Below, piece after piece: positions 1-62,493 of a stretch of DNA of 64,000 nt; the stretch's first letter is position 1; the number at the start of each line of letters is the position of its first letter. The stretch is from Massalongia carnosa (taxonomy: Eukaryota): the NCBI GenBank assembly GCA_965645245.1, contig OZ287081.1, positions 1,116,001-1,180,000 on the forward strand. The letters run 5' to 3'. Made by a program: the position numbers and the translations under genes. The notes below the pieces were generated by a model. It did no database searches and was not told where the DNA came from. It saw nothing but the letters and a program-made list of their open reading frames with translations.

Positions 1-108
1 TCACAATGTCGGCCCGCGATATTGACTACTTTTAACGCGTTCAAGGCTATATTTCTGTAACGGTTCGACCAAGCGTGGTGCGGACGGCAGGACCTACAGC
101 GAATATAG

Positions 109-3057
109 TATGGTGGGCGACATGTGTCATCTATGGTCAGATGACATGGCAGGCCTGTGTGGGTATAAAACGGTTTTTTTGCTGGCGTTTTCTTCATCAT
201 CTCCAGACATGATCTTCTATCACCTACGCTGTTATCATCATCGTCGTGTCACGTAGTCATCGATACACGTTTATTTCGTGCATCAACTAGTCGTTCAGTC
301 GTTCAGTCGTCGAGTTGTTTTCATGTCTATGCAGTCGTAGGTCTATTCAGACGTTTGTGTGTGTGTTCACTGCTCAATTCGCTATCTATCATCACGTACC
401 ACCACCTTCCATTAGCACGCACGACTACCCTTCCACATTGGTGACCATGGTGCGATATATAATTGTACTGGTGCAATTGAGCGGTTGAACTGAGCATCAA
501 ACGTCGAAAAACCTCCTTATTTTGCACCTCTAATCACTCTGACTACTCCACCTCCGACCGTGCGCGATCGAGTCCTCCCACATCAAATCAAGCATTATGG
601 CCCCCATCAGCTTTTTCACCTTTTCGACCTCGGCTTCCGCTACCGTTACCGTTTCACCGACTGCATGCGTTCCAGACGTCCATTTTTAGGAATGGCTAGT
701 TGTTCTATTTACTGCACTGATGGCCATGTCCTCGTGTTTTACCGTCTGCATTTGGGCCAATGCGACCGTGTCCGAGAGTACTAGACCGACCTCACGTTCT
801 CCACTACCATAAAAACGAGCACGTCAACGACAGCGAAACCATAATCGAGCGAGACGTGGTAGGCCTACCAAAAGAGCATCCGTTTCTGCCTCCGAGTCGT
901 TCGAGTCATTCGAGTCGTCCACTTCCACGTCCACCACTAGTGTACCAACCTCTAGCACTAGTACACCTCCATCTAAATCTTTATCTTTATTTGCTTCTTC
1001 TTCACCCAGCGCACCTATGAGCAAGCGATAGCGACATCATCTGCCAAGACAGTGCTGGTCCATCTCCGTGTCGAGGGCATGGTCTATCAGTTCATCAGCA
1101 CCGTCAGTATCGTTATCAACTGCCTCGGTTGCATTAACATGGTCATACATGAGCATGGAGGAATTGTTCGCGAAATATGGGGCACAAAAGGCCTATGTGG
1201 CCCATAAAAACTGTCCAGAATCGCTGCCTATTTGTCTAGCAGTCGCCGTGTCACCACCGGTCACTATTTCTGCACCGTCTGCACCGTCTGCACCGTTCAT
1301 GTCTGCACCGTCCACCGCACCACCGTCACCCGTCACCGCTTTTCGTTCTGCCGTGTCTTCGACACCTGTCATCACCGCTATCGAGTCAGCTGACACTGAG
1401 TCAGGAATTGAGTCATCTACACGTGGGCCGGAAGGGCCAAAATCAGCAATTTTACGTTCAGCACCTGGTTCTAGCACTGAGCTAGCGCGGGCCGGGGAAA
1501 GGCCGACCACTGAGTCCGCTGCGTCTACTGTCACTGCGTCTGCTGACACTAAGTCAGTCATTGAGTCATCAAAAAAGGGGCCGGAAAGGCTAAAATCAAC
1601 TTCATTTCATTCAGCCTGTGAGGTTAATGTGGAGCTAGCTATGGCCGGACGTCTTCCGGACGTCAGCTACGTCGAAATTGACGACTATTTAGCACCTTCT
1701 CGTTCAAAATTACCGTCCCGTTCAGCGTCATCTTTTCGTTCAGCACGTTCATCACATTCAGCGTTATCATTCGTTCAAACAGTGACCTTCGTTTCGTCAA
1801 ATGTCGATGAATATCTGTCTACTTTGCCGCTCATTCAGTCATCTATCTCTCGTCGAGCACTAGGGTTTTTTTATTTGCAGGCCTCCACCTGGATAGTTCC
1901 TATGTGTCGACTGTCTAGCCTTCTGCTTTCGGAAGCCCTAAATCAACTAGCAGGTGCTGATAACACGAAAATATTGCTGCACACTGTCGTGGGTCGAGAG
2001 ATTTTGACCGAGTTGCTAACAAAAGTGAAAGAAATTCTCGCACGGTCATCAGCTAGTGACACCGTGTCAGCCAATCGGGTGAGGTCTTTTCCACCTCCAT
2101 GTAGGTCAGGGCCATGGCAGTCAGACCGAGCTAGGCACGCACGGGCTAGACGTGCAAAACGTACGCGCTGGACACTACCTGCACCTCCGGCTTCATATTG
2201 CTCCACTCTATTTGACAGGCCCGGCATATCTAATCAGTCAGCGTCAGCACCAGCATCGTCAGCATCTCCGTCGTTATTATCAGCCCTACCAGCTGCACCA
2301 CCGGTTGATGCCTTGCCATTACCTGAAACGTTCACGTCGTCAACATTTGAGGCCTATCGGGCGAGCGGTTCGTTCATTCCACCTTAGGCTAACTCTATGC
2401 AGTCGTCCGGATCACCGTCAAACGACCTATTAGTCAGTCAACAACGATTTATTCAGTTCGTATCCACCCCCGAGGGCTGGCAGGCAATAGTGACGATGAT
2501 GGAGGCTATTCAGCAGTGGATAGTGGTCGATATGAGTCGTGTTTTTCATATGTAACGTGATCATGTGAGCTGTGCTTGGCCCGCAGGGCAGACTAGTGAG
2601 GGGGACAGACTAGAGGCGAGGCGAGGGCTTAAAGACGAGTTCTGATGGGTCAGGAGAGGCGAGCTGGCGAAGTGTTGACAGATGCCAGGGGACGGCATCT
2701 TTGGGGTATAAGGCTATGTGGTGGGGCGACATGTGTCATCTATGGTCAGGTGATATAGCAGGCCTGTGTGGGATAAAACGGGTTTTTTGCTGGCGTTTTC
2801 TTAATCATCTCCAGACATTATCTTCTATCACCTACGCTGTCATCATCATCGTCGTGCCAAGTAGTCATTGACACACGTTCATTTCGTGCATCAACTAGTC
2901 GTTCAGTCGTTTAGTCGTCGAATTCATTTCATGTCTATGCAGTCGTAGGTCTATACAGACGTTTGTATAAGTATGTGTGTATGTGTTTACTGCTCAGTTC
3001 GCCATCTATCATCACGTACCACCACCTTCCCTTAGTACGCACGACTACCCTTCTTTA
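109..3057 (+). mobile_element. Non-autonomous LTR retroelement (about 2.95 kb; LTRs 109..437 and 2717..3057)
   Basis: Two diverged direct repeats of about 330-340 bp (T[A/G]TGGTGGG...ACTACCCTTC); TGGTGACC PBS-like sequence after the 5' LTR; G-rich tract before the 3' LTR; apparent ATAG duplication at 105-108 and 3058-3061; no RT or integrase motifs seen. Confidence 0.8.
1068..2387 (+). CDS. Ser/Ala/Pro-rich ORF of unknown function inside the LTR element
   Basis: 439-aa open frame with an internal ~153-bp duplication (about 1389-1497 vs 1542-1650); no recognisable domain; start uncertain. Confidence 0.35.
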   Translation: MSRAWSISSSAPSVSLSTASVALTWSYMSMEELFAKYGAQKAYVAHKNCPESLPICLAVAVSPPVTISAPSAPSAPFMSAPSTAPPSPVTAFRSAVSSTPVITAIESADTESGIESSTRGPEGPKSAILRSAPGSSTELARAGERPTTESAASTVTASADTKSVIESSKKGPERLKSTSFHSACEVNVELAMAGRLPDVSYVEIDDYLAPSRSKLPSRSASSFRSARSSHSALSFVQTVTFVSSNVDEYLSTLPLIQSSISRRALGFFYLQASTWIVPMCRLSSLLLSEALNQLAGADNTKILLHTVVGREILTELLTKVKEILARSSASDTVSANRVRSFPPPCRSGPWQSDRARHARARRAKRTRWTLPAPPASYCSTLFDRPGISNQSASAPASSASPSLLSALPAAPPVDALPLPETFTSSTFEAYRASGSFIPP

Positions 3058-3697
3058 ATAGCATTAGTCCCAGTTATAGTAGAATTGAGCTTAGTCTGCG
3101 GACTAAGTATTGTGCCTTTTGGTCGGGAAGGACAGGTGGAGCAATAGTAGAATTCTAATTACTATATAGCTTCGTCACAATTTCGATTATTGAATGTCAA
3201 AACGACGGATAATTTGATCTTGTTATGATGATCACGTGCTAGCCATCTGGGAATATCGCATAATTACATGTTCGAATTGAACTTTCGAATTTCATCCTGC
3301 AAATATTGCATGTTTTCATCAAATATTACAATATTTACACCGTGTGCGACGACTTTGAACCACGATTCGTCCTTTCGAATTATTCGTGGGTCAAATAAAT
3401 GCTCCCATATTGATTTATTGTTCAATAAATCTTCAGCAGTGTTTTCAGGATTAGTAGGCAGAACGATTTTTTGACCCGTTTTGGATTTTCGACCGTGTTA
3501 ACAACGATAGTCAATTTCGGGACTATAAAAAGCGAATTTATTTGGTTTCGAAGCAACAGTGAATCGATATCGCCGATTTGAGCTTTCGGTGTGATTATCA
3601 ACCGTCGAGATTTGTTCGCGTTGAAATCGTCAGTATTATCGAATTTATTCGCATTCAAATTGTTGTTATTATAGTAGTTTTTTTTTTGGATCGAGGA

Positions 3698-7295: not shown

Positions 7296-7970
7296 AATCA
7301 TTGAATAGTCAGTAATTAATGATAATTGAAATAAATTATAAAATAGATGAAGCAGATGATGAAGTAAATGATAAAGTAGCAACGCGTTAACAAAACAATA
7401 ATATTGTTGACATAATCGACACTAAACTATATCAGGTCAACGTTAAACCGAATCGAAGTTTTTTGCAAGTTCGTTAGACGGACGGATTTAGCGCGGTTTT
7501 CGGCAACATCAAAACATGAAAACCTCAAATAACGACCACCTCTCACGGCCCACAACGGGCGTAAAAGAACGTAATTTTCGCGATACGGATTGATATCCAC
7601 AGGATCAGTTGATCTACCAAGTTTGACGAAGTGAAACGGTCCGGTACGGTGGAGGCAAGAGGGGAGTTTCTGGTCCTGTCCGCATGACGTCCTCTCCGCA
7701 TTAAACGGTAATTCAGTACTATATAGAATTCCAGACGTTTTTCCCCTTCTTTTCAGTGATCTGTTGACCGGCCGTTCAACGAAGATCGATAAAGCCAAAA
7801 ATGGAATTTGCAAAATTTTTACGTGAAATATACTGTGAAAATTTGTGCTTGCGGAAGTTCCCGTAACCTTAAATGAGGAATGAACTTTAGAAGACTTTGA
7901 CGTCGCGACAGTTGTTGTACAGTAACGCGAGAGTAAATATTTTTTGTAGATAATTCATATAGTAGTAATT

Positions 7971-8242
7971 TGTTGAAATAGGTATATGACTATAGCTATA
8001 TAGCTATGTAATAATAAAGGTATGTATGACCGTGATGTTAAGGAGGAAGAGTTGTTATGCAGCAATCTTTTCCTATTACTGGTCACCCTTCTAAGCGAGG
8101 TGATCTTATCTTATCTTGGGACTAAGCTTAATGCGGCATCTACGGTTTCCGTAGATGATTTATCAACCTAGGGCAGCCGTCGGTGCTATATTCATTGAAC
8201 TGATAGGTGTTTATTGTACTGGTAGGAATTGGATATTCAACA
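7971..8242. mobile_element. Copia-type solo LTR (272 bp), related to the LTR at 11739..11974
   Basis: TGTTG...CAACA termini; TSD TAATT at 7966-7970 and 8243-8247; shares ATGACTAT.GCTATAT, GATGTTAAGGA and TGGTCACC blocks with 11739..11974. Confidence 0.88.
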
Positions 8243-8404
8243 TAATTGAGGGTCTTGCGACAACAGAACAGAAGAAAACAAGAAAAAGAGCGATTTTTGG
8301 TAATGTTGTTGGTATTTGTTGTTTTTCCCAACTTCTAGAGCGCGCTTTATCACGTCGGTCGCGTGCGACCAGCAGAAAAACTCTGCTGGAGCTTTGCTAG
8401 AGCT

Positions 8405-8971
8405 TGTAACGGTTCGACCAAGCGTGGTGCGGACGGCAGGACCTACAGCGAACATAGCAGGTCCCAGTTATAGTAGAATAGAGCTTGGTCTGCGGACTAA
8501 GTATTGTGCCTTTTGGTCGGGAAGGACAGGTGGCGCAATGGTAGAAATCTATTCACTATCTCGCTTCGTCACAGAATACTTAGTCGTCAATCGGTGTACT
8601 TGTCGTGAGTTCGATTCCTGACCTGAGTTCCTCGCTTTTTCGCCTTGCTTCGACGGACTGAAGCTAGGACGAAACGGGAAAGCGTTGGATGAAAACTCTC
8701 TAAGTCGGATCGGCGAGGGCGGTACGCTAAGAAGAGCCCATTCTTCGGGGCTAACTATAACTGGAAGCGGCTAGGGGCTAGCCGCAGCTAGACGGGCGGT
8801 AGTGTAACGGTTCGACCAAGCGTGGTGCGGACGGCAGGACCTACAGCGAACATAGCAGGTCCCAGTTATAGTAGAATAGAGCTTGGTCTGCGGACTAAGT
8901 ATTGTGCCTTTTGGTCGGGAAGGACAGGTGGCGCAATGGTAGAAATCTATTCACTATCTCGCTTCGTCACA
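8405..8971 (+). mobile_element. TRIM (miniature non-coding LTR retrotransposon), 567 bp
   Basis: Two apparently identical 169-bp LTRs (8405..8573, 8803..8971; TG...CA), 229-bp internal region, purine-rich PPT AGACGGGCGGTAG, TSD GAGCT at 8400-8404 and 8972-8976. Confidence 0.95.
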
Positions 8972-9649
8972 GAGCTCTCCTGCACTCAATCTGAGAGCGT
9001 TTTTGCTCTGGAGGAGCTCAAATGACTGAGAAATAGAGGCTCAATTGACTGTTAAAGTTATTGAGTATCAGAAGTTGCGGTAATTATGTTTCGATAGGTG
9101 TCCGTCGAATGCGCCACAGCCGGATAATTTTACTTCAAAGATTTTGACGTGACGACAACAATTGTACAGTAACGCGACAGTGAGTGTTTTTTGTTGATGA
9201 TTTCGGTGATAAAAACTGAGGTCTATGCGACAATAAAATCGAAGAGATATCGAAAATTGAGCGATTTTTGATAGAATTGTAGATGTATTTTGTTTTTTTG
9301 TAAATTTTAGGGGCGTTTTTTGGAGTGATTTGGATAGCTCTACTGTATCTAATTCTGGTGCATTTTTGCTCAAGATGGGTAGAAACTAATGCGAAAGTTT
9401 CAGAGTATCAAAATCGACGGTACTGTTGCTGCTTCAGTGCGGTGTCTCTGTACTTAGTTGGCTATTTTTGCGTCGGTCGCATACGCCCAGAGGAAAACTC
9501 TGCAAGAGCTTTGCGGAAGCTCTCCCACACTCAATTTAAGTGCGTTTTAGCTCTAGAGAAGCTCAAATGACTGAAAAAGATAGGATCAATTGACTGTAGG
9601 AGTTATTGAATATCAAATCATGAGTTATTTATGCTTGACAAAAAATATC

Positions 9650-11738
9650 TACTCTCGCTATTATTTTCGATCTACCTTTGTCACTTATTTCCGAAAGTAC
9701 TAATGAAATGCAATGCACATTCTCCTAGTTTTATTGACGATGTTGCAATATATGTCGAAACAAAACTGCAAAACAGAATTGCAAAGAAATCGAAATCATA
9801 GTTAAAACAGCATTTGATTTGGCCGCACCGAATATGTCAAATTTGATGACGATAAATCCGAACTGATATACTTGGAAAAGACAAGAAATGCATCGAAAAT
9901 ACATTCTGCAAACACCTAACGGAACTATACTAGAACCAAAAAATGTAGTCAAATGGTTGGGGATCTGGCTAGATCGAAAACTGAATTACAAAAAACACGT
10001 TAATACTCGAATTTCTTCTGCAAATCGGTCGTTCTTTGTAATTCAAAATTTGATGAAATCGAAATAGGGTCTAAAACCAACTGCATGCAGACAGCTTAAT
10101 CGGTCATGCATCGTTCCTATTTCGGGTTACGGTTCACAAATTTGTTACAATTGTAAAAAGAAAGATGAAAAACTATTTCAGATTTTGCAAAATCGGATGT
10201 TTCGAAAGATTTTAGGAACATTCAAAACCACACCTGTTCAGGCGATGGAATTTAAATCACATGTATAAGCAGTCAAACTACTTTTATTGATGAAAAAGCA
10301 AAAATACGTTATTCGATTGTTGTGTCATGGAATTACCACGCAACCTCCCACGTTTCCTGATCGGGTTAGTATTTAACAGGCTTTCTTGCCGTGAAACCTG
10401 CGCTGTATATTGAATAAAACCGTGGCCCGTTATTCCGAACTATCCTGAAACCTCACCCCATGTGTTCAGACGTTCTTCCGCTGCCTGCAGTGCACTCCCA
10501 AACTCCTATATCCCGAATCCAATCTCAAAGTCTCCACTATCCAAGCCTACGACTGGGATTGCCCAGCAGAGAGAGATTGCTTCGGCATGGAGAAAGGCGG
10601 AACAGGTCAAAGCGATTATGGTTAGGAAATTAGAACAGGAACAGAGATAAAGGCAAGTCAAGAATAGAGGAGTTGGAAGCCATGGCTATAAAACCTATAT
10701 GGTTTCTCAGGTGTTTGGAGCTCTTCGTCGGACGTCTTGTATACTATCCCTAGACCTAGCTTTCTAATAGTAACTCTCGCATATCTCCCTATCTGGACCT
10801 TGTCCGTGACATGTTGAAGATTGGCAAAAATAATCCCATTTGTCAAAGAATTCCAAAAACTTATTCGATAAAATTGAAAACATCGGTTTTGATAATAACT
10901 TATGGAACAACAAATATACCGAATAGAACGAAGACGAAAAACAAACGAATAAACGATATACTAGTCAGTTTATTGGCGTTCTCGACTCTATTTCGGACAT
11001 ATTTCACAAAACTGATAAATTTAAACAATCAAATAACTTCATAAAACAATAGAAGTCGTCTTGTAAAATTGAATTTCAAATCAAAATTCTAAAGAAATAG
11101 CAAAATCGAGTTATTATTCGACTTTGTCAAAAATTCAGTGTATGAATTCAGATAAACCACGAATATTACTTTATGCGAATGAATCAAAAATCGAATTTGC
11201 AACTTCTGCTGTCACATTGGCACCAATTATGCGAAATTGGAACAATTTTATCGATGATTTCGAACACTTTATCGAAAAAGAATGCGTTATCGAATATTAT
11301 ACAATTTCGAAAAGCTGGAAATTAAGCAAACAATCGATCATTGAAAATGCTGAACTGCATGCGATTTTACAAGTAGTCAAATGGGCGTTTAAATTGACGA
11401 ACGCGAATATATTATCGAATTTAGAAAAAACGATTTGGATTTTTTCCTATAGTTTAAACGCGATAAACGAAATTCAATATTTGACAAATCACATTTACGC
11501 GAAGCAAATTCGAAAGATTGAAAAATGTTTATTCGAAAACAACTATCAGATAATTCTGCAATAGATTCCTAGTCATTCGAAAATCATCGAAAACGAAATT
11601 GCAAATAAAGCGGTGAATGCGGGACACAGTTATATCCTAGCCGAGTCTTCGGCGATCATAATTTGACTATTTGAAAAGTTAAATTTATCAAAATACGCTA
11701 AAAACATGGACGAATCAATGGCAACGATGCAGGTCTAT
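9650..11738 (+). mobile_element. Degenerate LINE (Tad1-like) ORF2 remnant: RT C-terminus and RNase H
   Basis: KWLGIWLDRKLNYKKHV (RT thumb), RKILGTFKTTP, AELHAI, IWIFS, *IPSH...NEIANKA (decayed RNase H WIPGH...GNEIAD); many stops. Confidence 0.8.
10323..10811. mobile_element. Solo LTR (489 bp), same family as 59208..59695
   Basis: TGTCATGG...CCGTGACA termini; TSD TGTTG at 10318-10322 and 10812-10816. Confidence 0.92.
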
Positions 11739-14700
11739 TGTTGAATAGGTCTATGACTATGGCTATATGACTATGTAAAGATAGGGGCCTGTATGACCAT
11801 GATGTTAAGGATGCAGAGTTGCTACGGACTGCAGAGCAATCTGTTCCCTTTATATTGGTCACCTCTGCTAAGCGAGATGATAATAGTTTATCCGAGCCTC
11901 TATGCGATTAGATTAGATCTGATCTTATCTAATCTATCGGCTAGGCAATGCTGGTAGAAGTTGAACATTTAACACCCTCCCTTCAAGTTCTGCCAGTACT
12001 TGTTCTGATAATCAAATCCGCGCTGCGCGGTATGAACTCAACTAGATGAATTCATGTGAAGTTTTCTGATGAAGGAGAAGAATTTGACGTGGGTAAGCGG
12101 TTTGGTCAGTCCGTCCGCTACCATGTGTTCTGTTGAAACATAGGTAAGGTCTATTCGACCCTCTGTGACCACATTCCGTATTAAGTGATGCAGAATTTCG
12201 GTTTGCTTAGTCCTTAAATGTAAGACGGGATTATTGGCCAGTGCTATAGCACTCTGATTATCACCTTTCAATGCTATAGCGCCTTCCCTTTCAAGTACAT
12301 TCACTGTCGGAGTAGCATCATCCTGCATCAGCACGAGTTCTGTCATCAATAAGCGTATCCATATGGTCTCCTTAGCAGCTAAGGTGAGTGCCATATATTT
12401 GGCTTCTGTGGATGAGAGGGCAACGGTTTTCTGTCTTTTTGAGGCCCAACTGATTGGTCCATTGTTCAGCATGAAGACGTATCCGGAGGTGGACTTGCGG
12501 TCTTCCTTGTCACCGGTCCAATCATTATCGGAATAGCTCTGTATAGACAAATCTCCGCCACCAAAGGTAATGCCTCTGTCTCTGGTTGCAATGAGATATC
12601 TGAGAATCTGCTTGGCTGCCTCCATGTGTGATTTGCCAGGATTTTTGGCATGTCGGCTGACCACTGAGGTCGCGTAGGCAATGTCAGGCCTTGTTTCTAT
12701 CATAGCAAACATGATGGAGCCGACGATTGCTTGATACTGTTTAATGTCTGATTCTGAGGCCTGGGATTCATTTCTGAATAGACTGCCTTCTTTCATTGGG
12801 GTGGTGGTAGTGTTCGCGTTCTGCATATGAAACTTCTCCAGGACCTTTTCGATGTAGGTAGATTGAGATAGTTTGATTGTTCTGTTATCGCGATTTCGTT
12901 CTACCTTAGGCCTAGATAATGACTGATTGAGCCCTTGTCCACCATCTTGAACGCAATGTTCAGTTGTTTCTTGACTTCAGATATCATAGGAGATCCCTTT
13001 GGACCTATGATGTTCAGATCATCAACGAAGGAGGTAACAATTGGACCTCTTATTCCTGCCGAAGAAGAGAAGATACTATGATCTGCGTGAAGTTTGGACA
13101 GACCCAGCTTGGTAAGTAGAAATTCGGATAGCCTTTCGTACCATAGGCGTGGAGATTGTTTCAGGCCATAGAGAGCCTTGTTCAGTTTGCAGATCATGCC
13201 CGCTTTTTCATATCCTTTGGGCATTTGGACGTAAATCAATTGATCTATTACCCCATACAAGAGTGCTGTGACGACATCAAGCTGTTCGATGTCCAAGTCA
13301 TGAACAGCTGCTATGGCAAATAATAATCGGAAGGCCATTGGTTTCACTACGGAGGCATAGGTCTGTTCGAAATCTACTCCGTACTGCTGGAGATAGCCTT
13401 TCACCACCCATCTGGATTTGTACCGTGTGATATTTCCATTGACGTCTCGTTTCAGTTTGTATACCCATTTTCCACTGAGAGCAGTATGATTGGGCTCCAT
13501 ATCCTCGGTTCTGACAAGAGTCCATGTTTCGTTCTCGAGAAGACTGTTGTGTTCATTGTCCATGGAACGACTCCAGCTTTCTGAATGTGGACCTTTCCTA
13601 GCTTGATGGTATGTCTGAGGTTCAGCTATGTCGAGTTGAGACAGTGCGTCATAGTCTTCCAATCCTGATGATCCTTTCTTTTCCAAGGTTCTGGCAAGAA
13701 GAACGAGTGGATCCTCTGTGTCTATGTCATCGTATGTAGGAGTATGATTGGGTTCATATAAAGCTGTGTCTGATAGAAGAGACAATGCGTGTTCTATCTG
13801 AGCATGCTTTCTGGGTCTGCCACGTCCACGTTTTGGAATCGTTGTGGGGGATTGAATGACTGTTGATTTTGATGGAGTGACTATATCGGGAGTCATGATG
13901 GCTTCGTATGTAGGAACGTTGGTCTGGTCTTTGGAGATGGCGTCTTCGTGAATGCGCAGATCTTTGACCCTGATGACCCTGTAGTCCTTTTCCAGAAAGA
14001 CTCGATAGATCGTGCATCCATCGTACCCACACAAGACTCCGCGTTAGGCCCGAGGTAGCAATTTGGCCGATTTGCTGTTGGCGCCTTTGCGTTCTTCCTC
14101 ATGAATGAGTATATACACGGTTGATCCCAACACTCGCAGATGATTCAGAGGAGGTGACTTTGACTCGTAAATTTCAAATGGGGTCTTTCCGGATAAAGCA
14201 TTTGTAGGTCTGACGTGTTTTGTGTGAACCATAGCTAAAACCACCTCTGTCCATAGGTAGTCCGGAATGCCTCCTGCAATGATGGTACATCTAGTCATGT
14301 CCATGATAGTTCTGCCTGTTCGTTCAGACACACCGTTTTGTTCCTGTGAATACGGTGCGGAGGGTTCAAACGTTATCCCTTCTTTCAAGTACCAATCATC
14401 CGATTTCAGACTTCGAAGTTCTGTGCCGAGATCAGTTCGAAAGATGTTTATTGGCTTGCTCTTTCCTGTCTTGTTCTGAGCTAGACTGTAGTATGTCAAC
14501 AGATGATCAAACCATTCGCTATTCTTGATGCTTGTATACACATGAGTGTATCTGCTGGCATCGCAGGTGAAGGTAAAGAAGTACTGTTCTTCAAGAAGTC
14601 CTGCTGGTTTGATGGGTCCTACTAGATCGGAATGAACCCTTTGAAAGATGCCTGTTGCTCTCTCCTGAGGTGTCCGGTTGTATATCTTAGTGGCCTTTCC

Positions 14701-16821
14701 GAGTTCACAGGATAAACAGTACCAATCTTTGTTCACGTTGTCTGAGTACGACACATCGAGTCGTTTCAGAAAAGCTCGGCGGGTGATCAGGTTTAAATGA
14801 CCAAGACGCGCATGCCATGTTGACAGGTCTGTTATGGCTGACGTGTGGTAGACTGATGTGTTCGGCCACTGAAAGGTGCTCTCATCTGTCTGCATAAGAT
14901 GTGTAGCCACGTCTGGGGCGTCCAAGGTCTTTAGTACAAAGTTTGTATTGACTCTTGGCACATAGCCTATGATGTTCTGACTAATCCCGTTGAATAGGGT
15001 CCAGTTAACATTGTCGTCATAGTAGATGTTGTTTTGGTTGAGTAGTGCCAGACTGACGAGGTTCACTGGACACTGTGGAATGAAAAGAACGTTGTTTAGT
15101 ATTAACACTGACGAAGGTGAGTCGTCCTGTAGTGCCAACGTTTTCCGGATCATACCCCTCCCTGGAGACGTGCCATCTGATGTAGATCCTGCCAGACCTG
15201 TGGAGCGTGTTATGTAGTTGATGAACGACGGCCTGTGATTGCATACGTGCATGTCCGCTGCGCTGTCTAGTAGCCAGGTGTCTCTGTTGAGATGGTTGAT
15301 GGTCATGACCTTCTGTAGAGTGGTAGTCATGACCACTGTGAGTCAACTGCTCACTGTGGGAGTTGTAGTGCTGTGGTGTCTGGAGTTGACGCGGTGACTT
15401 CTGGCTTGGAGTTCTTTTGTCTCTTGACCCTCCCTGATTCAGCTGTGTCTCCTCTCGCCCGTTTTAGATAGGGGAATTTCTGGAAACACTCATCTGGCCA
15501 ATGTCGTGTTCTGTTCCTATTTACACACTCTGGAACAGTGCAACTTCCGATAGGTGCTCTACCTCTGTTGGAAACGCCAGTATGAAAAGCCTTGACAGTT
15601 AGGTTTCGTGCATAGGCTATGAGGATTTTTGTTGTTTCCGAAAGGTTTGTGGTGTCGTGCGTCCAGTCCCTGGAGAGTTGTGCAATGAGCGGGTCATACT
15701 TGTCTGTGCAGTTACCAAGCAGCATTCCCTGAAGTACAAACTCTATGGTTCGACGTTTACCTTGACCTCTTCAATCAACATGCTCTTGATCTGATTGAAG
15801 GCACCGTCATACTCTGAACAGTATTGACTGACTCTGTCGAAGTCTCTCATCTTTTTCGTACTAACCCTCAAGATGACATCCGTGATGCTCATTGGTGCCA
15901 CGTCCTGGAATCTATTCTTCAGAATGGCCCACATCTCGGCAGCGGTCTTGTTATTGATGAGGTTATAGTGACATGGTGCAACCAGTCCATGGATGATTCC
16001 AATAGCCTTGGTCATCTCGGTTTTCTGTCTGTTCTTATCATCCCGAAGTTCTTTGACGAGGATGCTGGTAGTAAGACTGGCCGGAGTAAACCCTGATACG
16101 ATGAGGCTCTCTCTGATGGAGTCCAATGAGATCTCTGGTTGGGTTTCCAGAATGGCTGTGTCACAGTTATTCTTCAGCAGAATACCTCTGGTGTAACTAG
16201 CCCATGCTGAGTAGTGTTCCGAGTTCTCTAGAAGGTGAGGCTCTCTGTGGAACTGTTGATTTCAGGAAGAGACATGATGAAGTCAGATGAAGAGAGTCAG
16301 ATGAAGATGAAGAAGAGGTCTCTAGTAAACTTCTGTAGATTGAAAGGTATCTAAGTTTCTGAGATTGGTGCAGGAGTAGGATGTGCACTGGACTGAATGA
16401 AGGAGATGGGAATATGTGATCTAGTTATAGACAAAACATTTCCCTTCCTTTGTCATCAAACTGTGATGTTCCTTTCTTTGCCACAACGCTTGTACCCTCA
16501 TGAAAGAACTCTCTTCAGATGGTGAAACTTTCACTTGGTGGTGTGGAGATAGGGGGCTGTCGGAACCACGGTCCGACCGTTCCATTTAATAGGCCGGGCC
16601 TGTTAAATGGAATAAGGTTTTTTCCGGATTCCGAATTTCCCGATTGAGGCGTTCTGCTTAATTGAAGTCTGATTACTCCATCTGTATACGCGTAGACTAG
16701 TCAGAAAGTCTGTTAATGAATGATGCAGCAAGGATCAAACCTTGGAACTGAATTTCCTAAGTCTGTCTCTGGATCAAAGTATGTTGAGTGGTGATGCAGC
16801 AAAATTCAGAATGAAGTCTGC
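11739..16821 (-). mobile_element. Ty1/Copia LTR retrotransposon, 5'-truncated; gag-pol disrupted
   Basis: 3' LTR 11739..11974 with adjacent PPT; order gag (about 16275-15351), protease WLLDSAADMH, WHARLGH, integrase HSDLVG...NGVSER, RT (FVDD), RNase H (STSGYVF, DNQSA, ADGLTK); in-frame stops and frameshifts; no 5' LTR before the MULE. Confidence 0.92.
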
Positions 16822-19800
16822 CCGAGAAGACTCGGGACAGTCCCCCCCCACCGTCCCCCTAGCGAAAATCATTGCAAATTAGGACTAGCTACAAGCCACC
16901 TCCTCATACTAAATATGTGCACGTCCACCGTCTCTCCGCAAGCTTCCTCTAGCTGATTTAGCTTAGCCCCGCATTCTGAAAAATCCTCATCTATTCATAC
17001 TACTACTATTACTACTACTCCTACCACTCATTGCGATGATCTCAATTCTGAAAATGCATCACTCAATTGCGAAACATTATCCTTTCTAGGCTTCATAGTC
17101 TTAGCAACCTTTCTTGCAGCTGCGTTTTTCCTCTCCTCAGCCCTTGCTTGTTTGGCCGCTTGGTCGGCCCTCTGCTGAGACTCCAACTCCAACTGAGCCT
17201 TCGATTTTTTGGCTACCACACCCCGTGACCCTCGTGTTGTTGTTGCAGACGATGTGGATGGTAGCTGGCTAGCGCGGATGTTTTTTTGACTGAGGCTATA
17301 AAGGGAAGGAGCTTTGGAGAGGGAACCGTTTGGGAAAGAGCCTTTTGGCTATGTTTCGCCAGCACTTCATCAATATCTTCAAATGAATCGGAAGAAGATG
17401 CCGGGGATGGAGGGATAAAATCATCATTCTCATTCAGAGAGAGTGGAGGATCGGGGGTAGGCTGAGTTGCTATATATTGCAGGGCATCGTCGTCAGATAC
17501 GATGATAGCATCTCCGGAATCTATACCGAATATTAGCCGCGCTACATCGATCGATTTGCTGATATCGTGGGTTTTTTATCATCAATCATACCCTTGTCTT
17601 CACCGCCTGCCCGCAATTCATCCTCATGCCTTCTTCTCCTCCCTTCTTCAATCGAGTCCTTACGTTTAGCACGTCGCTGCTTAGCTTCATCTGCCTCAGC
17701 TGCCTCACGGCCAGTGTAAGCCCGCCGGCGACTCCCACTCTTTTTATACATGAGGTTGTCCTTCGGTCGGATTTCGTCGGGGAAAGTTGTAGGGATAAGT
17801 GGCCTCGCCAGCTCCTTATCCTGCCATTTTTTATTGAAAATAGCAGTGAATTTGGCGAATTCACGAGCGTATCCCTCCCTTCTATGCACATTTTCTATTG
17901 ATTTATGAAAATCAATTGATTGATGTGCGGCCGCATGCAGCAAATCAACACCCCCGCGACGAAATCTATCCCCAGTATTATTGTCAACTGCCTTCTCGAT
18001 TTCCTCCTCCGGCTCAGATTCTTGACTTTGTTGAGCATTCCCCCCCTCATCCGCCTCCTCATCCTGCTCTTCTGTGGTCTTCCTGTGAGCTGCTCTCCGA
18101 AACATCTCAGCGAAATTTATGGTGGGGTCGAAAACCATGCTCCACGAGACCACAAAAGGCGGGCCATCGAAAAACCAGCGGGGATGAATGAGGGAGATAG
18201 GTATGGGGATAACATCAATGACGCAACGATACAACCAGCATCTGCACGGAAGACCGTATCGTGGAGGCAAATCACAATCATACATACAATCCTCACCGGT
18301 TGGTTCGATTAATGCAGTCCCTTCAACTCCAAAAGAAACCTGTTGATTGAAATCTTCGGCTAAAATTTTAGCTGCATCCAACTCTCTAGATATGAGGTCA
18401 ATAGCATGATGAGTTATTAAACCTATAAGGTCTTTGAACGCACTTCTATCCATTAGCCGGGGGTTGTTGATTCGTTGATGATTGGTTGATATTTCGTAGT
18501 CAACCTGAACCCTTTGCACTGTTTCGCATATTTTCCGCACCGAGTCCTTGATAGGTGTATGCCTATTTGTCACATTCTTTACCAACGGATGCAAACCTTC
18601 CACCCTTTGTGTGCTATGTGCACCTAAATTAGGGAACTTTCTGGTGTATGCGGAAACAAACTGACACTCCTGACGTTGATAATAGCTAGTAAAATACTAC
18701 TGGAAATAGGAGTGAGTTAGCCCTTATTAACGTTTTTTGATGGCTTCATACCTTTTCTGAAGCATGAAGCTTCAATATCAACGCGTTTCTCTTCTCATCC
18801 AGCTGTTCAACGGTAGGAGTTTTGATCCACTCCCATATCAATTCATGCAGTTCTTTCCGTACTTCTAAAGGATATGAACCCGCCCTGATCAGGCGTTTCT
18901 TGATTGCCTCCGCTGCGTGCCACGTGCATAATTGCAACACACAATCAGGGTCGGTTTCGTGTATTGATTGGGCGACTTGCCATGCAACGGTCATTGCTGC
19001 ATCCGGGTTTATTTCCTTAGCCCGTTTTTTATGCATCGCTGCAGTCAATCCAGCGGCGAAGTCTCCGAGGATGACCCTAGGACCAGGACATGTATCATGA
19101 AAAAAGAGATCTTTCATACAATCAAATAGAAACGTAAAGCACTCAGCCGATTCAGAAGTTATATAACAATAGGCCGCGGGGAAAGTCTGATTTGTGTTGG
19201 TGATGCCAACCAATACCGATAGAGGTAAGTTCAACTGATTTGTATTGAACGTAGCATCCGTTTCTATCAAAAATCCACTGACGAATCGTCTAGTCAGTCG
19301 GATCTGTTCAGCGTTACAGAAAAAGAAATGTTCAACAACACGTCTTCGGGGAGTATTGTTTTCAACGAGATATTTCTCCAAAGTCCGTACATGAAACCCT
19401 TCTTCTTCTAGAAATCCAAGTGCATAGATCAACTCTTCTTCAGGTGTATGTTTGCCCTGGGATCGAGCCAGGTTGTAATAGTCCTTCTTCGAAAGGCGCA
19501 GGCCAGTCATTCCCAAAACGCGAGATGCTTGACCGTATCTAGTTGATGCATCACGGAGACTTTTGGCTTGATCTAGGGCAGTTGCTCGATCGAGGTCTTG
19601 GCTACGATGCTCTTTGAAACCGAAGGGGTCTGTAGCCATCTCGTGATTGTGATCAGGATTGGTGATGATTAATCTCCAGGATTCGTCTTTGTTTTGCTTC
19701 AGTCTTAGTCGATATTTGCACTCGTTGAACGAGACCTTCGTGTTTTTTCGTACGCGGTCCTTCTCCTCTAGCTTTCTAGTGTTTCTTTCTCTTTTGTGAT

Positions 19801-20242
19801 GACGGGTGCAATCTAGTATAACGAGATGATTCTTCTTATCATTAGTCTCTGTGACCAATGCAAAGCCTTGAGTAAAGGCATAATTCTGAAGGCGGGTTTT
19901 TCCCTCCTCCCAGGAGATAAAGATTTCACTCTCACTCGGAGGAAGACGATGAGAAGACGGTAAACTCGCTATAGCCCTTTGCAAACGTGCATCCAGGGAC
20001 GTTGATGTGAGGGCCATAGCAAAGAAAAAGATTAGGGAGAGAAGAAGTGCGGTCTACCTATCATAGTGATAAATTTATACAGAGGGTTGGCTGCCTATAC
20101 CTATAATATTATTAATAGAGACGGTGAACGAGGTATATGCACCTAATTATTTAGTATGGGGAGGTGGCTTGTAGCTAGTCCTAATTTGGAATGATTTTCG
20201 CTGGGGGGACGGTGGGGGGGGGACTGTCCCGAGTCTTCTCGG
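16822..20242 (-). mobile_element. Mutator-like (MULE) DNA transposon, about 3.4 kb
   Basis: About 90-bp TIRs starting CCGAGAAGACTCGGGACAGTCCCCCC; no matching TSD in the flanks. Confidence 0.9.
17542..20017 (-). CDS. MULE transposase (FAR1-like N-terminus, MULE DDE, SWIM-like C-terminus); two exons, intron 18751..18700/18697
   Basis: C...HNH FAR1-type motif; ETDATFNTN..LPL; LQLCTWH; STQRVEGLH; C...YGLPCRC; intron GTATGA...GCTAAC...CAGTAG. Confidence 0.85.
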
Positions 20243-21338
20243 CCAACCGAGATATTGCGAAAAGCCTATATAGAGAACCGAGTGAATGGTAATGCCATGC
20301 AACACATGGAAGCCAGACTGAGGAAAGGGGCCGCCAAACCTTTCGAGACCGCTGAGGAAATGTTGGAATTATTGGAACGAATTTATGGGTCCCCAACCGA
20401 AAACACACTGCTATGAAGGCATTTAGGGCCTTGCGCATAGGAAGTAAGGACTTCAATTCTTTCTGGTCCGAATTTCAACGACTATCTTCAGAGTTAGATT
20501 ATAGCCCCTCTACCCTTATTGCTGAACTCACTCACAAGCTCTCCTTAGACATGAAAAAGCAACTGGCCATCGGAAATCAGGAACCCACGGACATTTATGA
20601 GTATGCTCATCGTTGCCAGCGAATTTTTCAAGCTTTGAAAGATGTCGAGAGTTCAAAAGCGAGCTATGATCGAATGAACGAAGGAAGAAAAAACGTCATC
20701 AAAGCATCAACACCCTTCAAGCCTAGAGTAGACACTTCTGCATCCAAACCTTCAACCTTACCTTCTCACTCCGTCCCTATTAAACCTGCTGTCACATCGG
20801 GACGTTTGACTGAGGTGGAACGAGAATAATTAACGAAGGAAGGTAGATATTTTTACTGCAAAGAAAATGGACATTTGGCAAAAGACTGTAGCAAAACTTC
20901 CAAAGCCTCTATCCACGAAATGAGCGGCGAGACGGGAAAAGAATAATCTCATCTGAAGGCGCGGATGAGGAGGAACCTCTATTGATTTCCTCTTCCTATT
21001 TACCTGGTGATTTGTTCACCGATGAACCTATTGTTCATGCATGTACGTTAGGTAATAGGAATGAGATAAAGCTTGATGCTCTTTTAGACACTGGGGCTAC
21101 GGGACATGCTTTTATCGACGAATCAATGGTGCGCACTATTTGTGAACAACTTCAAATCGAACCCCAGAAACTGACGAAACCAAACCGGTGCGAGGATTTG
21201 ATGGACGACGGGTCCCTAATATACCCATGCCATTTATCCTACCATGACGATGCAGGATCATCGTGAGAACTTATTACCATTGCTGATCACCAAACTAGGA
21301 CAGCACGAAATAATTCTAGGAAAACCTTGGATGAGGAG

Positions 21339-21507
21339 TGTGACGAAGCGAGATAGTGAATAGATTTCTACCATTGCGCCACCTGTCCTTCCCGAACAAA
21401 AGGCACAATACTTAGTCCGCAGACCAAGCTCTATTCTACTATAACTGGGACCTGCTATGTTCGCTGTAGGTCCTGCCGTCCGCACCACGCTTGGTCGAAC
21501 CGTTACA
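21339..21507 (-). mobile_element. Solo LTR of the TRIM family (169 bp) inserted in Gypsy pol
   Basis: Reverse complement of 8405..8573 with about one mismatch; TSD AGGAG/AGGAA. Confidence 0.93.
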
Positions 21508-23556
21508 AGGAAACACGGACTCCTCCTGGAAATAAAGGACGACAAGATCATGTTCTGGCTTAGGCATTGCACCCATCCTGGCGCCTCTGGACTGCCAACA
21601 CCAATGAAAATAATGAGGCAGACAACGTCGGCTTCGAACAAACCAGAACAGACCCGAACGGTCCGACAAATCCTGCTCCGACCGGAAGAGACTTGTACGG
21701 AACGATCCGCCCCATTGTCGGTACCTTTTAAGAAAATCGGAAAAGGACTATCAGAAAGACTATCACAAAAGTCATCTGCCGAAGATAAGCCGATAGAGTG
21801 CGCCCTCATAGGGGCTGCGGCCTACAAATCACTGACCAAGAAGAAAGACGTTCAACTATTCGCAATATCTCTGAGGGATATTGACTATCAATTAAACAAG
21901 GAAAGTTCGACTCCTACCGACCCGAAGACCAAAGTTCCTGAAGAATACCATGACTTTCTGAAGGTATTCTCCAAAGCTGAATCAGATAAGCTAGCATCTC
22001 ATCGCCCATACGATCACAGGATCCTGTTGACCGGAGATCAAGATCATGGACATAGCTATTTGAGGAGTATGTCCCGCATGGAATTGGATTTCGTGAAGAA
22101 ATATCTGGAAGACAATCTAAGAAAGGGGTTCATAGAGGCCAGTCATGCCGCATGTTCTTCTCCGATCCTATTAGCCAAGAAACCAGGTGGAGGACTCCGT
22201 TTCTGTGTTGATTACAGAAAGTTGAACCAACTAAGCAAGAAAGATAGATATCCATTGCCCTTGATTAATGAAACGCTAGCCCAGTTGAAGGAAGCCAAAG
22301 TTTTTTCCAAACTGGACATTCGACAGGCCTTTCACAAGCTGAGAATGGCCAGTGAATCTGAGGACCTTAACACCTTTAATTGCCGCTTTGGAGCGTACAA
22401 ATACAAGGTGTTACCATTCGGACTGACCGGAGGACCTTCTTCCTGGCAGCATTTCATCAATGACATTCTGTTCGAGTACCTGGATAAATTCTGCTCGGCC
22501 TACTTAGACGACATCTTGATCTACAGCAGGAATATTACAGAACATTGAGAACATGTCCGAAAAGTGTTGGCCAAACTTCAGGGAGCTGGTCTTCAAGTGG
22601 ATGTAGACAGGTGCGAATTTCATGTTATTGAAGTCAAGTAATTGGGGTTAATCATCACCACGGAAGGAATAAAAATGGATACAGCCAAGGTTCAGGCCAT
22701 AGTCAGTTGGGAAGTCCCCACCTGTCTTCGTGAAGTGCGATCTTTCATAGGATTCTGTAACTTTTATCGACGTTTCATAAGAGGCTTTTCCAAGATCGCT
22801 GGTTCACTGAACGCTTTGGCGAAAAAGGGAAAATTATTCGAATGGAATGAAGTCTGTGAACGAGCATTTCAAGGATTGAAACAGAGAGTTATTGAAGCAC
22901 CAGTCCTAGCTCACTTCGACCCGAAGAAACAATGTTATCTGGAAACGGACTCGTCAGACTACGTCAATGGAGGAATAATGTCTCAGAACGGAGAGGATGG
23001 AGAGTTGCACTCAGTCGCCTTCTTCTCCAAGAACCTCAACCCTGCTGAATGCAACTATGAAATCTATGACAAGGAGCTGCTGGCCATATCCGATATTTCG
23101 AACAATGGAGGCCCGAATTGGAAAGCACCGAGCTACCCGTTAAAATCTTCACCGACCATAAAAGCCTGGAATATTTTATGACCACAAAGAAAATCACCAG
23201 ACGACAGGCCCGATGGGCCGAGTTCCTCTCAGAGTTCAACTTTGTCATCACCTATAGGACGGGCAAGCAAATTGAAAAAGCTGATGCTCTTACACGTCGT
23301 CCGAACGACAAGCCACAGGATGACGAAGATGAAAGACAAAACATCAATTACAAACGGTGTTGACCTCGGATAGACTAGACCTTCAACCAATCGAGATCAT
23401 CGATAAAGATCTTACCCTCGCAGAAAAGATCAAACATAGAAATCTTCCAGATGAGACCTGCAACCGAATGAGGAGTAAGCTGACCGAAGAGGACTATGAA
23501 GAGTCACCGGAACTAGACCCGCTCCCTAGCATAAAAGATTGTGTAATCAAGGAAGG

Positions 23557-23899: not shown

Positions 23900-25031
23900 C
23901 ACGCGGGTGACAAAATAAATTGCAACGTGTAAGCGAATTTACCCCTGAATGCCCCATCAAAACACCCTCCTTTTTTTCAACTTTTTATCTCATCATCAAT
24001 GTCTCGACCCAAAAAGCCTCATTATGATACTCCCACAAAGGCCAAAGTTCAAGGAGCTTATCAATTTCTCATCTCTCTACAATTGGAAGGAAAACGCTAC
24101 ACATGGGATGCTTTAGCACAGGAGATTGGGGCCGACGTGATGGGACGTACAATGAAGAGAACTCTTACAGCTGCCTTGAATTATCACAAATGTCTAGCCT
24201 GTGTCAAAGGGTGGCTGGCAATGGCATCAGAAGAAAGAAGAGAAGAATTTGCTACAGTTATGTTAAATAAATATCCTCGGTCCGAAGACTCGCATCGCGT
24301 ACGATTCAGCGATGAGATTCATTTTGGCTACGGGCCTGAAGGACAGTTACGAATCATTCGTAAGCCCGGAACAAGATATCGTTGGGATTGTATTCAGCAT
24401 CGTGATGCACCACCTGAGAAAGATCGTAAAAGAAAGCACTGCTGGGTAGCAGTTGGTTACAATTTCAAGTCGGATATCTACTTCTACGATGTGCCCAGCA
24501 ATAGCAATGGAAAAATGACTCATCAGGTGTATATTGACGCTATTCTTAATCCCGTCGTCAAGCCCTGGTTGGAGCGTAGAGATGACTTCGTACTTGAAGA
24601 AGATAGAGACTCTGGTCATGGCACGGGCAAGAGACGAAACGCGGTCAAAAAGTGGAAGTTAGATCACGATTTAGAGCACTATTTCAATTGTTCTTCATCT
24701 CCTGATCTACCTCCCATTGGAAATTGCTGGCAGCCCGCAAAGCAGCATGTTCGTAAATTTCCTCATTGGGACGATGCAAGTTTGGAGCAGCTGATTAGGG
24801 AGGGATGGGCTCGAGTCAGTCAGGAATTTATCAATGAAAGGGTGTTATCCATGCCCAAAAGATTGAAAGAGGTGAAAGATGCAAAGGGGGCGATGACTGG
24901 TTATTGATCTCATGTAATTTAGATGAATTTTATCAGCTATGCAGATGATGGTTGATGATGAGATGAAAATTTGAATAAAAAAGGGGGGGTAAATTTGCTT
25001 ACACGTTGCAATTTATTTTGTCACCCGCGTG
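23900..25031 (+). mobile_element. Tc1/IS630-like DNA transposon with CACG termini and 5-bp TSD (internally deleted); ORF 23999..24907
   Basis: TIR CACGCGGGTGACAAAATAAATTGCAACGTGTAAGC at both ends; GCCAC at 23895-23899 and 25032-25036; motifs RFSDE, EED, SPDLPPIGN (catalytic E replaced by G). Confidence 0.9.
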
Positions 25032-58368: not shown

Positions 58369-58973
58369 TAGGGCGAAGGTTTTTTTTTTTGGTGGGGTGA
58401 CCCGATTGGGTGGCTGACCCGAATGGAGGGCTGACCCGAATGAGGGTAAATTACGTTATAGTCAAGCCGTTGCTTGACAGAGACGACGACTTCGTTTTGG
58501 AAGAAGATGGGGACTCCGGACACGGCACTGGTAGAACGAGAAATGCTGTGAAAAAATGGAAGGAGGATCATCGTTTGGAGCATTATTTCAATTGTGCATC
58601 ATCACCCGATTTGTCACCCATTGAAAACTGCTGGCAACCGATTAAACAGCATGTTCGTAAATATTCACATTGGGATGATGCTAATCGTGCTAAACCACTT
58701 TCGGAATGGAAGAGCATCCCTTTAGTGCTTACCATCTCAATGACGCATTGGGCTCAATGTCACCATCTACCCACCATCTTTGACACGTAAACACCCCACC
58801 ATGCCTTCTGATTCTTATTATAAACTCGAAAATCGTATTGAAGAGGCCATCGACGCGCTTCATGATGGTTGGTATAATTTTGCATAAATGGTTCAGGAAA
58901 ATGATCTACATGATGACATTCTCATTGGCACCAGCGACAGTGGTTATTCAAATGATGATTTAGCTATAGACTA

Positions 58974-61900: not shown

Positions 61901-62157
61901 AGTTCTTTTGATGCAGCCATTGGGTTATATTTAAGGTCAATAAATGTTCAGATTATTCCGAACCGACTTCATCAGTTGGCTTGCAATTACTAGCAATTTT
62001 GGTGGCATGCGAAGCTGAAAGGTAAAGGGTTTTCGGATTTTGGTGGGGTGCTTACTAACTAGCGTGTTGCAAATGGGGGTGTGTTGCAAATGGGGGTGTG
62101 TTGCAAATGGGGGTGTGTTGCAAATGGGGGTGTGTTGCAAATGGGGGTGAATACGAG
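58974..62157 (+). mobile_element. Fot1/pogo-like element with 17-bp tandem arrays in its TIRs; transposase 59714..61556 with one frameshift near 59890
   Basis: Ends CTCGTATTCACCCCC.../...GGGGGTGAATACGAG; TA TSD; YNMDEKGF, ILDGHASH, MLQPLDVG. Confidence 0.93.
59208..59695. mobile_element. Solo LTR (488 bp), same family as 10323..10811
   Basis: TGTCATGG...CCATGACA; TSD CAACT at 59203-59207 and 59696-59700. Confidence 0.92.
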
Positions 62158-62493
62158 TAGTTGAATCACTTCATCGAGCATACGAGTAGCAAAAGGCAAG
62201 GTGCATGGCTACTTTTAATCATTGACGGTTTTGGATCGCATATGACCATCCTATGTTTTTAACTAGCCACTGCCAACAACATCGTTTTGTTTCGATTACC
62301 AGCTCATTCCACTCACCTCACCCAGCCATTGGACGTAGGTGTTTTTCAACCATTCAAACACTATCACACCGAGGCAATAGATCGGGCTGTCCGGTTGGGG
62401 GACTGTCAGTTTGGTAAGCTGGAATTTCTCGCTGCATTGCAGGGCTTCCGAAATGAACTATCCACCATCCGTCATGCGTTCAAATCAACCGGA

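Follow-up and report, generated by a model that had tools for sequence, protein, structure and literature searches.

A miniature LTR element whose primer-binding site matches its own LTR and which probably primes its own reverse transcription

How is reverse transcription primed in a long terminal repeat (LTR) element that lacks a tRNA primer-binding site (PBS) of the TGG type? The question is raised by a non-coding element at positions 8405-8971 of a 64,000-nucleotide stretch of DNA from Massalongia carnosa (assembly GCA_965645245.1, contig OZ287081.1, positions 1,116,001 to 1,180,000 of the forward strand), referred to as the window in the following. An earlier note on this DNA had described it as a terminal-repeat retrotransposon in miniature (TRIM) that appears to self-prime reverse transcription, and had interpreted it as a recently active parasite of a chromovirus reverse transcriptase (RT). 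The best reading of the analysis reported here is that the element belongs to a TRIM family which probably primes reverse transcription in the style of the retrotransposon Tf1.

Judged by its structure, the element is a TRIM-type non-autonomous LTR element with an atypical PBS. It is 567 bp long, ends in direct terminal repeats of 169 bp each that begin with TG, end with CA and do not differ at a single position, and is flanked on both sides by GAGCT as a 5-bp target site duplication (TSD). TRIMs are defined by a total length below 1000 bp, terminal direct repeats of about 100-250 bp and a PBS complementary to a tRNA (PMC6934838). Total length and repeat length of the element lie within these bounds, and at the start of the interior, where complementarity to a tRNA would be expected, it carries a site that matches its own LTR instead. 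The first 30 nt after the 5' LTR do not contain TGG and thus no TGG-type tRNA PBS, nor is there any other candidate PBS. The longest stop-to-stop frame comprises 73 codons, coding capacity being judged here by frame length and without a Pfam scan. In full agreement with the earlier note, therefore, we are dealing with a 567-bp non-coding element with identical LTRs, a 5-bp TSD and no TGG-type PBS, and the TATA-like TTATAGTA is also located where it had been placed, 20-27 nt upstream of position 8495. The claim of a polypurine tract (PPT) stands with regard to its position before the 3' LTR and is weak with regard to its composition: AGACGGGCGGTAG contains ten purines in 13 bases, and 21 of the 217 interior 13-mers are at least as rich in purines. 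The PPT is rightly placed but not distinctive and forms a weak point of the observation. A reverse orientation of the element was rejected, as the minus strand has neither a TGG nor a purine tract at the required places. With regard to retrozymes, no ribozyme family (hammerhead) appeared among the Rfam matches at E values up to 10. Independently of these features, 20 nt in the TATA-like region of the LTR (8455-8474) are 85% complementary to 20 nt close to the 3' end of the interior (8754-8773), a pair that is no better than chance in BLAST (E about 4).

The sequence at the PBS position, AATACTTAGTC (8575-8585), is the exact reverse complement of GACTAAGTATT (8495-8505) within the LTR over 11 of 11 nt, confirming what had been noticed earlier. 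Beyond the 11-nt match, one mismatch is followed by 2 bp more, which results in 14 nt at 93%. Pairing breaks off abruptly 5' of position 8495, as is expected if this position is the first base of the RNA. When the LTR was shuffled 200,000 times, a complement of at least 11 nt starting 0-5 nt past the LTR was obtained in 0.0165% of the shuffles, and it is therefore unlikely that the complementarity is accidental. For placements sliding over the window, a complement of at least 11 nt was found in 60 of about 63,800, the element's own placements included. The RNA leader (8495-8590) is predicted to fold with -30.2 kcal/mol (z = -3.2), and none of 200 shuffled sequences folded as well. In the predicted structure, the helix between putative primer and PBS closes the leader fold and dominates it, while two hairpins lie inside.

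Table 1 Features of the element and of further members of its family in the window
Feature	Position	Strand	Remarks
Left TSD copy GAGCT	8400..8404	+	Paralogous empty site; run contigs skipping 572 nt
5' LTR, 169 bp, TG...CA	8405..8573	+	Identical to 8803-8971
TATA-like TTATAGTA	8468..8475	+	20-27 nt upstream of putative self-primer; weak TATA-box match, putative function
Putative self-primer GACTAAGTATT, presumed first 11 nt of transcript (start of R)	8495..8505	+	Exact reverse complement of 8575-8585
Internal region, non-coding, 229 bp	8574..8802	+	No similarity elsewhere in window
Putative PBS AATACTTAGTC	8575..8585	+	Begins one base past terminal CA of LTR
PPT AGACGGGCGGTAG, weak, interrupted	8790..8802	+	Adjoins 3' LTR
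3' LTR, 169 bp	8803..8971	+	Identical to 8405-8573
Second copy of putative self-primer GACTAAGTATT	8893-8903	+	Within 3' LTR
Right TSD copy GAGCT	8972..8976	+	Matches left copy
Solo LTR, same family	21339..21507	-	1 difference in 169; flanks TTCCT/CTCCT; inside Gypsy fragment
Older solo LTR, same family	56..3179 (parts 56-108, 3067-3179)	+	TSD ATTTC; 92% over second part

The element is not the only one of its kind. Three insertions of the family in the window carry 5-bp duplications (GAGCT/GAGCT, ATTTC/ATTTC and TTCCT/CTCCT), and the older of the two solo LTRs is interrupted by a 2.95-kb LTR element nested within it at 111-3053. The TSD of Tf1 also measures 5 bp. Sixteen of 20 listed public runs contain part of the stretch, none being on record as RNA, and contigs from four runs that differ in their organism label (X1, X4, X5 and X6) were aligned to an 801-nt stretch; such contigs cannot reveal transcript starts, ends or strand. 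From run X1 alone, 4283 contigs aligned, 2031 of them at 99% identity or more. Summed contig depth in X1 amounted to 0.36-0.53 million for the interior (8597-8785) and 0.49-1.28 million for the LTRs, corresponding to a ratio of about 0.3-0.6, and this interior-to-LTR ratio was lower in X4 and X5. The junctions between 5' LTR and interior and between interior and 3' LTR are both bridged by contigs of all four runs, and a single X6 contig, differing at 11 positions and with 4 gaps, covers 8509-8878. The loose contig ends at the outer edges of the LTRs agree poorly (0.41-0.50), reflecting many different flanks. Clearly, the element represents a high-copy family that is abundant in the runs containing it. 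Since the interior and both junctions occur in multiple copies in four runs, the 229-bp interior is not a one-off deletion, an outcome that the earlier note had named as fatal to its proposal. Nearly all other copies have A at 8586 and A at 8601, and the copy in the window is thus a minor variant of a large family. Note that one X1 contig connects the LTR end at 8971 to the LTR start at 8803, as would be expected of a 2-LTR circle or of two abutting LTRs, and that another contig connects 8407 to 8805 on opposite strands.

Identical LTRs and the existence of empty sites show that the insertion at 8405-8971 is recent. One such site lies about 1.1 kb downstream, in a paralogous repeat unit that continues without interruption past the insertion point and has a single AAGCT there. 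Empty sites are also present in the public contigs, where joints from 8398 to 8971 skip 572 nt, i.e., the 567-nt element plus the 5-nt TSD (four contigs in X1, one each in X4 and X5). The recent activity proposed in the earlier note is thereby borne out as far as insertion is concerned.

Neither of the two 11-mers has changed in the copies from the four runs. At 8495-8505, 8893-8903 and 8575-8585 no variant reaches 10% in any run, while 8570, 8572, 8574, 8586 and 8601 in the surroundings of the PBS do vary. All five of these positions are changed in X6, the most divergent run, and none of the 11 PBS bases is; the copy of the putative self-primer in the 3' LTR is covered there by a contig without differences. 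The solo LTR that is 92% alike contains a mismatch-free block of 46 nt (8488-8533), and seven of its nine differences fall within 8534-8562. Such invariance of the 11-mers is consistent with selection, or with a PBS that is copied anew from the primer each time the element replicates.

By analogy with Tf1, Tj1 and Tcn1, we infer the following course of events. Transcription by RNA polymerase II would begin in the 5' LTR, at 8495 or slightly upstream, and the first 11 nt of the RNA (GACUAAGUAUU) would fold back onto the PBS, one base past the LTR. RNase H of a partner element would cut after nucleotide 11, and the 3'-OH thus freed would prime minus-strand strong-stop DNA across 8574-8506, which would then be transferred to R as present in the 3' LTR. 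Plus-strand synthesis would copy the primer back into the PBS, so that each cycle would renew the PBS from the 11-mer in the LTR. As the element encodes nothing, it would have to borrow Gag, RT/RNase H and integrase, presumably from an autonomous LTR retrotransposon outside the window.

Precedents for such a mechanism are available. In Tf1, the LTR-internal sequence complementary to the PBS constitutes the first 11 nt of the mRNA (PMC7175516), and Tj1 has been read as self-priming in the same way (PMC4600332). Self-priming is regarded as common to the Tf1/sushi group, in which the leader adopts a 'pretzel' that needs three duplexes (PMC10085805); it has also been predicted for plant Tcn1-clade chromoviruses and TAR Copia elements (PMC6317226) and, more generally, for many Tf1/sushi/Tcn1 elements of fungi and plants (PMC4600332, PMC6317226, PMC10085805). 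The element resembles Tf1 and Tf2 of Schizosaccharomyces pombe, Tj1 of S. japonicus and Tcn1 of Cryptococcus in having, just inside the 5' LTR, a PBS complementary to LTR-internal sequence and in lacking a tRNA-type PBS (PMC7175516, PMC4600332, PMC10085805), and it shares with Tf1 the length of 11 nt for the match between primer and PBS. However, all of these are autonomous, measure about 5 kb and encode gag-pol with a chromodomain, while the element is non-coding and 567 bp long. Furthermore, the transcription start and the RNase H cut have been demonstrated for Tf1, whereas the present element is known here from its sequence and a predicted fold. The Tf1/sushi group is defined by a chromovirus gag-pol with chromodomain, which the element does not possess. 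Because it is non-coding and no partner is present in the window, we describe it as working like the Tf1/sushi group and not as a member of it.

Several observations weigh against self-priming. The Tf1 pretzel has three duplexes, of which the central one alone is clear here, the inner extension being limited to 2 bp after a mismatch. When the 30 nt that follow the PBS were paired with 8506-8574 to look for the outer duplex, the best match was at the level of shuffled sequences (p = 0.19), and it did not improve with the letters of the family majority (p = 0.78); a third duplex is thus not supported. Neither the TATA-like motif nor the PPT is strong. The complete lack of variants in the 11-mers is not significant on its own, as only about 1.3 would be expected by our estimate from the 22 variant sites listed, and covariation between the 11-mers was not seen in the four runs: compensatory changes are not visible because neither of them varies. 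In the 64-kb window, there is no autonomous element with the same LTR, PBS or interior, and the designation as a parasite of a chromovirus RT is therefore without support. Finally, the complement of the PBS, GACU-AAG-UAUU, consists of G-A-C-U, three nucleotides and four more, which is the outline of published PBSs directed against tRNA anticodon loops (PMC10886601 Data S1; FunCo1, PMC5445492). Taken together, the Tf1-type architecture proposed in the earlier note is in place, with an 11-nt complement at the PBS position, a helix closing the leader and both 11-mers unchanged in four runs, while the two additional duplexes of the pretzel were not found.

The resemblance to anticodon-loop PBSs leads to the strongest competing explanation: the TRIM could be primed by a fragment of a host RNA, such as the 5' portion left when a tRNA is cleaved in its anticodon loop. 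The match with the LTR would then be due to chance or be a by-product, for instance an old piece of tRNA origin in the LTR. We consider this unlikely. The only register that leaves U33 in place implies the anticodon AAG with a U at position 37. Position 37 in tRNAs is a purine, and a canonical tRNA can therefore not match all 11 nt. The anticodon stem implied by this register would pair at only three of five positions. In line with this, Rfam did not return any tRNA-like or 5S match in 8405-8971 at E values up to 10, and ARAGORN did not detect a tRNA in the window at default settings or in the element at default or mildly relaxed (-ps) settings. Calls made by ARAGORN at thresholds of 70-80% were mutually inconsistent, and tRNA-likeness was rejected. 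Chance is countered by the rarity of the exact LTR match in the shuffles (0.0165%). On the other hand, most fungal Helenus TRIMs and their Copia partners do work with host RNA fragments, have 5-bp TSDs and are linked to Copia (PMC10886601), and the PBS of the Copia element FunCo1, ATTAAGAGTCT, matches an internal part of tRNA-Lys (PMC5445492). Complementarity between LTR and PBS was looked for in Helenus by Kojima and not found (PMC10886601), which implies that the LTR match is no general by-product of such elements.

The comparison with Helenus deserves to be taken further. Helenus TRIMs were described by Kojima in 2024 from Pucciniales and a few Agaricomycetes; they carry tRNA-derived sequence in their LTRs, most of their PBSs are complements of tRNA anticodon loops, and their partners were inferred to be Copia rather than Gypsy elements (PMC10886601). 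Like Helenus or 'TRIMp3', the element is a fungal TRIM of a few hundred bp with a 5-bp TSD, solo LTRs, a high copy number and a non-TGG PBS (PMC10886601). Unlike the tRNA-derived sequence with both boxes in Helenus LTRs, its LTR contains only an 11-nt A-box-like motif, and its PBS matches the LTR exactly, whereas Helenus PBSs match the anticodon loop and were found to lack complementarity to the LTR. None of five motifs of the element (11-13 nt) occurs in the Helenus/Ajax sequence file (Data S1), a line-wrapped text in which a split motif would escape detection. Judging from these sequence comparisons, the element is not a Helenus. With classical TRIMs such as Cassandra, PbTRIM and biv-TRIM it shares a length below 1 kb, repeats of 100-250 bp, the lack of coding capacity, the positions of PBS and PPT and the TSD; however, classical plant and animal TRIMs are defined by a tRNA-complementary PBS, which the element does not have (PMC6934838). 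As in the fungal Copia elements GalEa and FunCo1, the PBS position is occupied by something other than the complement of a tRNA 3' end (PMC5445492). In GalEa the site is palindromic and its hairpin partner lies downstream in the interior, and FunCo1 matches tRNA-Lys; neither matches its own LTR (PMC5445492).

GalEa also provides the model for a second alternative, which we regard as improbable. The helix between LTR and PBS would then be a structural signal for packaging, dimerisation or RT loading, similar to the Conserved Hairpin Site of GalEa, and priming would proceed by another route. That helix is indeed the dominant feature of the predicted leader fold; fungal GalEa elements have a conserved hairpin at the PBS position, no PBS and no known priming model (PMC5445492), and bivalve TRIMs present a comparable picture (PMC6934838). 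However, the GalEa site pairs with a downstream interior sequence and forms a palindrome that includes the last A of the LTR, while the present 11-mer is no palindrome and has its partner upstream, within the LTR. Exactly as in Tf1, the helix measures 11 nt and adjoins the end of the LTR, and the element does not offer any other candidate PBS.

A third possibility, a TRIM driven by RNA polymerase III ('TRIMp3', Helenus-like) with a short transcript from A box, B box and T5 in which the pairing of the 11-mers is secondary, is suggested by known fungal TRIMs with small-RNA promoters (PMC10886601), by the fit of TGGCGCAATGG (8531-8541, in the LTR) to the A-box pattern, by that of AGTTCGATTCC (8608-8618, in the interior) to a B-box pattern whose first base is relaxed to R (A is present where GGTTCGANNCC demands G; the relaxed pattern matches only twice on both strands of the window), and by TTTTT (8636-8640) 18 nt after AGTTCGATTCC. 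It is very improbable: Rfam and ARAGORN detect nothing tRNA-like, the two motifs straddle the LTR boundary with the B-box-like one outside the LTR, unlike in Helenus, conservation of the A-box-like motif is among the lowest in the element (8534 and 8540 differ in the 92% copy, and G>A at 8540 makes up about 11% of X1 depth), none of the five motifs compared is present in the published Helenus/Ajax file, and a transcript ending at 8640 would be without 3' LTR and hence unfit for replication in the manner of an LTR element. The two box-like motifs may nevertheless be the relic of a polymerase III promoter, as in Helenus or Cassandra TRIMs.

Returning to self-priming in the style of Tf1, a more far-reaching version can be put forward tentatively. 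It holds that the family is abundant, currently mobile and wholly independent of host tRNA primers, with everything needed for self-priming contained in a leader of 91 nt (8495-8585). The element could then be the smallest natural Tf1-type substrate and the first non-autonomous user of this mode of priming, primer and PBS would co-evolve, and the A- and B-box-like motifs might go back to a tRNA-derived ancestor, which would link the family to fungal polymerase III TRIMs. A full-text literature search did not yield a description of a self-priming TRIM, most subscription journals being outside its coverage. What is new, to a modest extent, is a TRIM with self-priming architecture; TRIMs, fungal TRIMs with unusual PBSs and self-priming were already known. 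The conceptual gain is modest as well because TRIMs and self-priming are each well known. If confirmed, the element would provide a natural minimal template of 567 bp without protein genes, on which the cis requirements for self-priming, packaging and reverse transcription by a partner could be studied. It would also mean that self-priming retrotransposons, and not just tRNA-primed ones, have non-autonomous parasites. Elements of this type are overlooked or given the wrong orientation by LTR annotation pipelines that depend on a tRNA-type PBS.

An autonomous Gypsy element sharing LTR ends and PBS, the partner envisaged in the earlier note, was looked for in the window and not found there, the sole Gypsy piece consisting of RT and RNase H without LTRs. 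Three neighbours were considered and rejected as partners. For the Copia element at 12038-16261 on the minus strand, no pair of LTRs could be detected, and the Gypsy piece at 21445-23363 is truncated to RT/RNase H and without LTRs. The nested element at 111-3053 has unrelated LTRs and a tRNA-type PBS (TGGTGACC...). The LTRs of this nested element (111-433 and 2719-3053) are 89% alike and enclose a single frame of 451 codons (1032-2387) without a Pfam match; it may be a gag-only non-autonomous element. The Gypsy fragment as a whole extends over 20356-23363 with RT at 21445-22548 and RNase H at 22642-23363, contains the solo LTR at 21339-21507 in opposite orientation, and is cut off by a Tc1/mariner-like gene (23933-24907).

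Relatives were also sought in metagenomes. A scan with a 22-nt LTR pattern returned no match, and a scan for both 11-mers at a distance of 55-85 nt returned two contigs, L001 and L002. Both were rejected as chance finds, as they have only the 11-mers in common with the element (14 and 13 nt in L001) and the rough expectation was about two. Neither contig shows any other similarity to the element or long retro-element-like frames, the frames having been assessed without a Pfam scan. In L001 (4008-4090), GACTAAGTATTGTG and AATACTTAGTCAT lie 61 nt apart, and the five extra matching bases are slightly above expectation.

The host genome, as represented by the window, is rich in transposons and fungus-like. 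The TRIM itself is embedded in locally repeated non-coding DNA: 7891-8404 together with 8977-9091 resemble 9138-9636, and 7970-8115 resembles 11738-11892. This flanking repeat (7891-9636) belongs to an unclassified repeat family and reaches very high summed contig depth in X1, X4 and X5. Further along, a MULE-type DNA transposon (16819-20245) has inverted ends of 98 nt that are 95% alike and carries on the minus strand a frame (18746-20053) with AFT/FAR1 DNA-binding and MULE transposase domains. A pogo-like DNA transposon (58970-62161) is bounded by inverted ends of about 98 nt, which match perfectly and include short tandem repeats, and encloses an intact DDE_1 frame of 612 codons (59718-61556). 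A piece of 490 nt from another pogo-like copy (95.5%) is found at 10323-10811.

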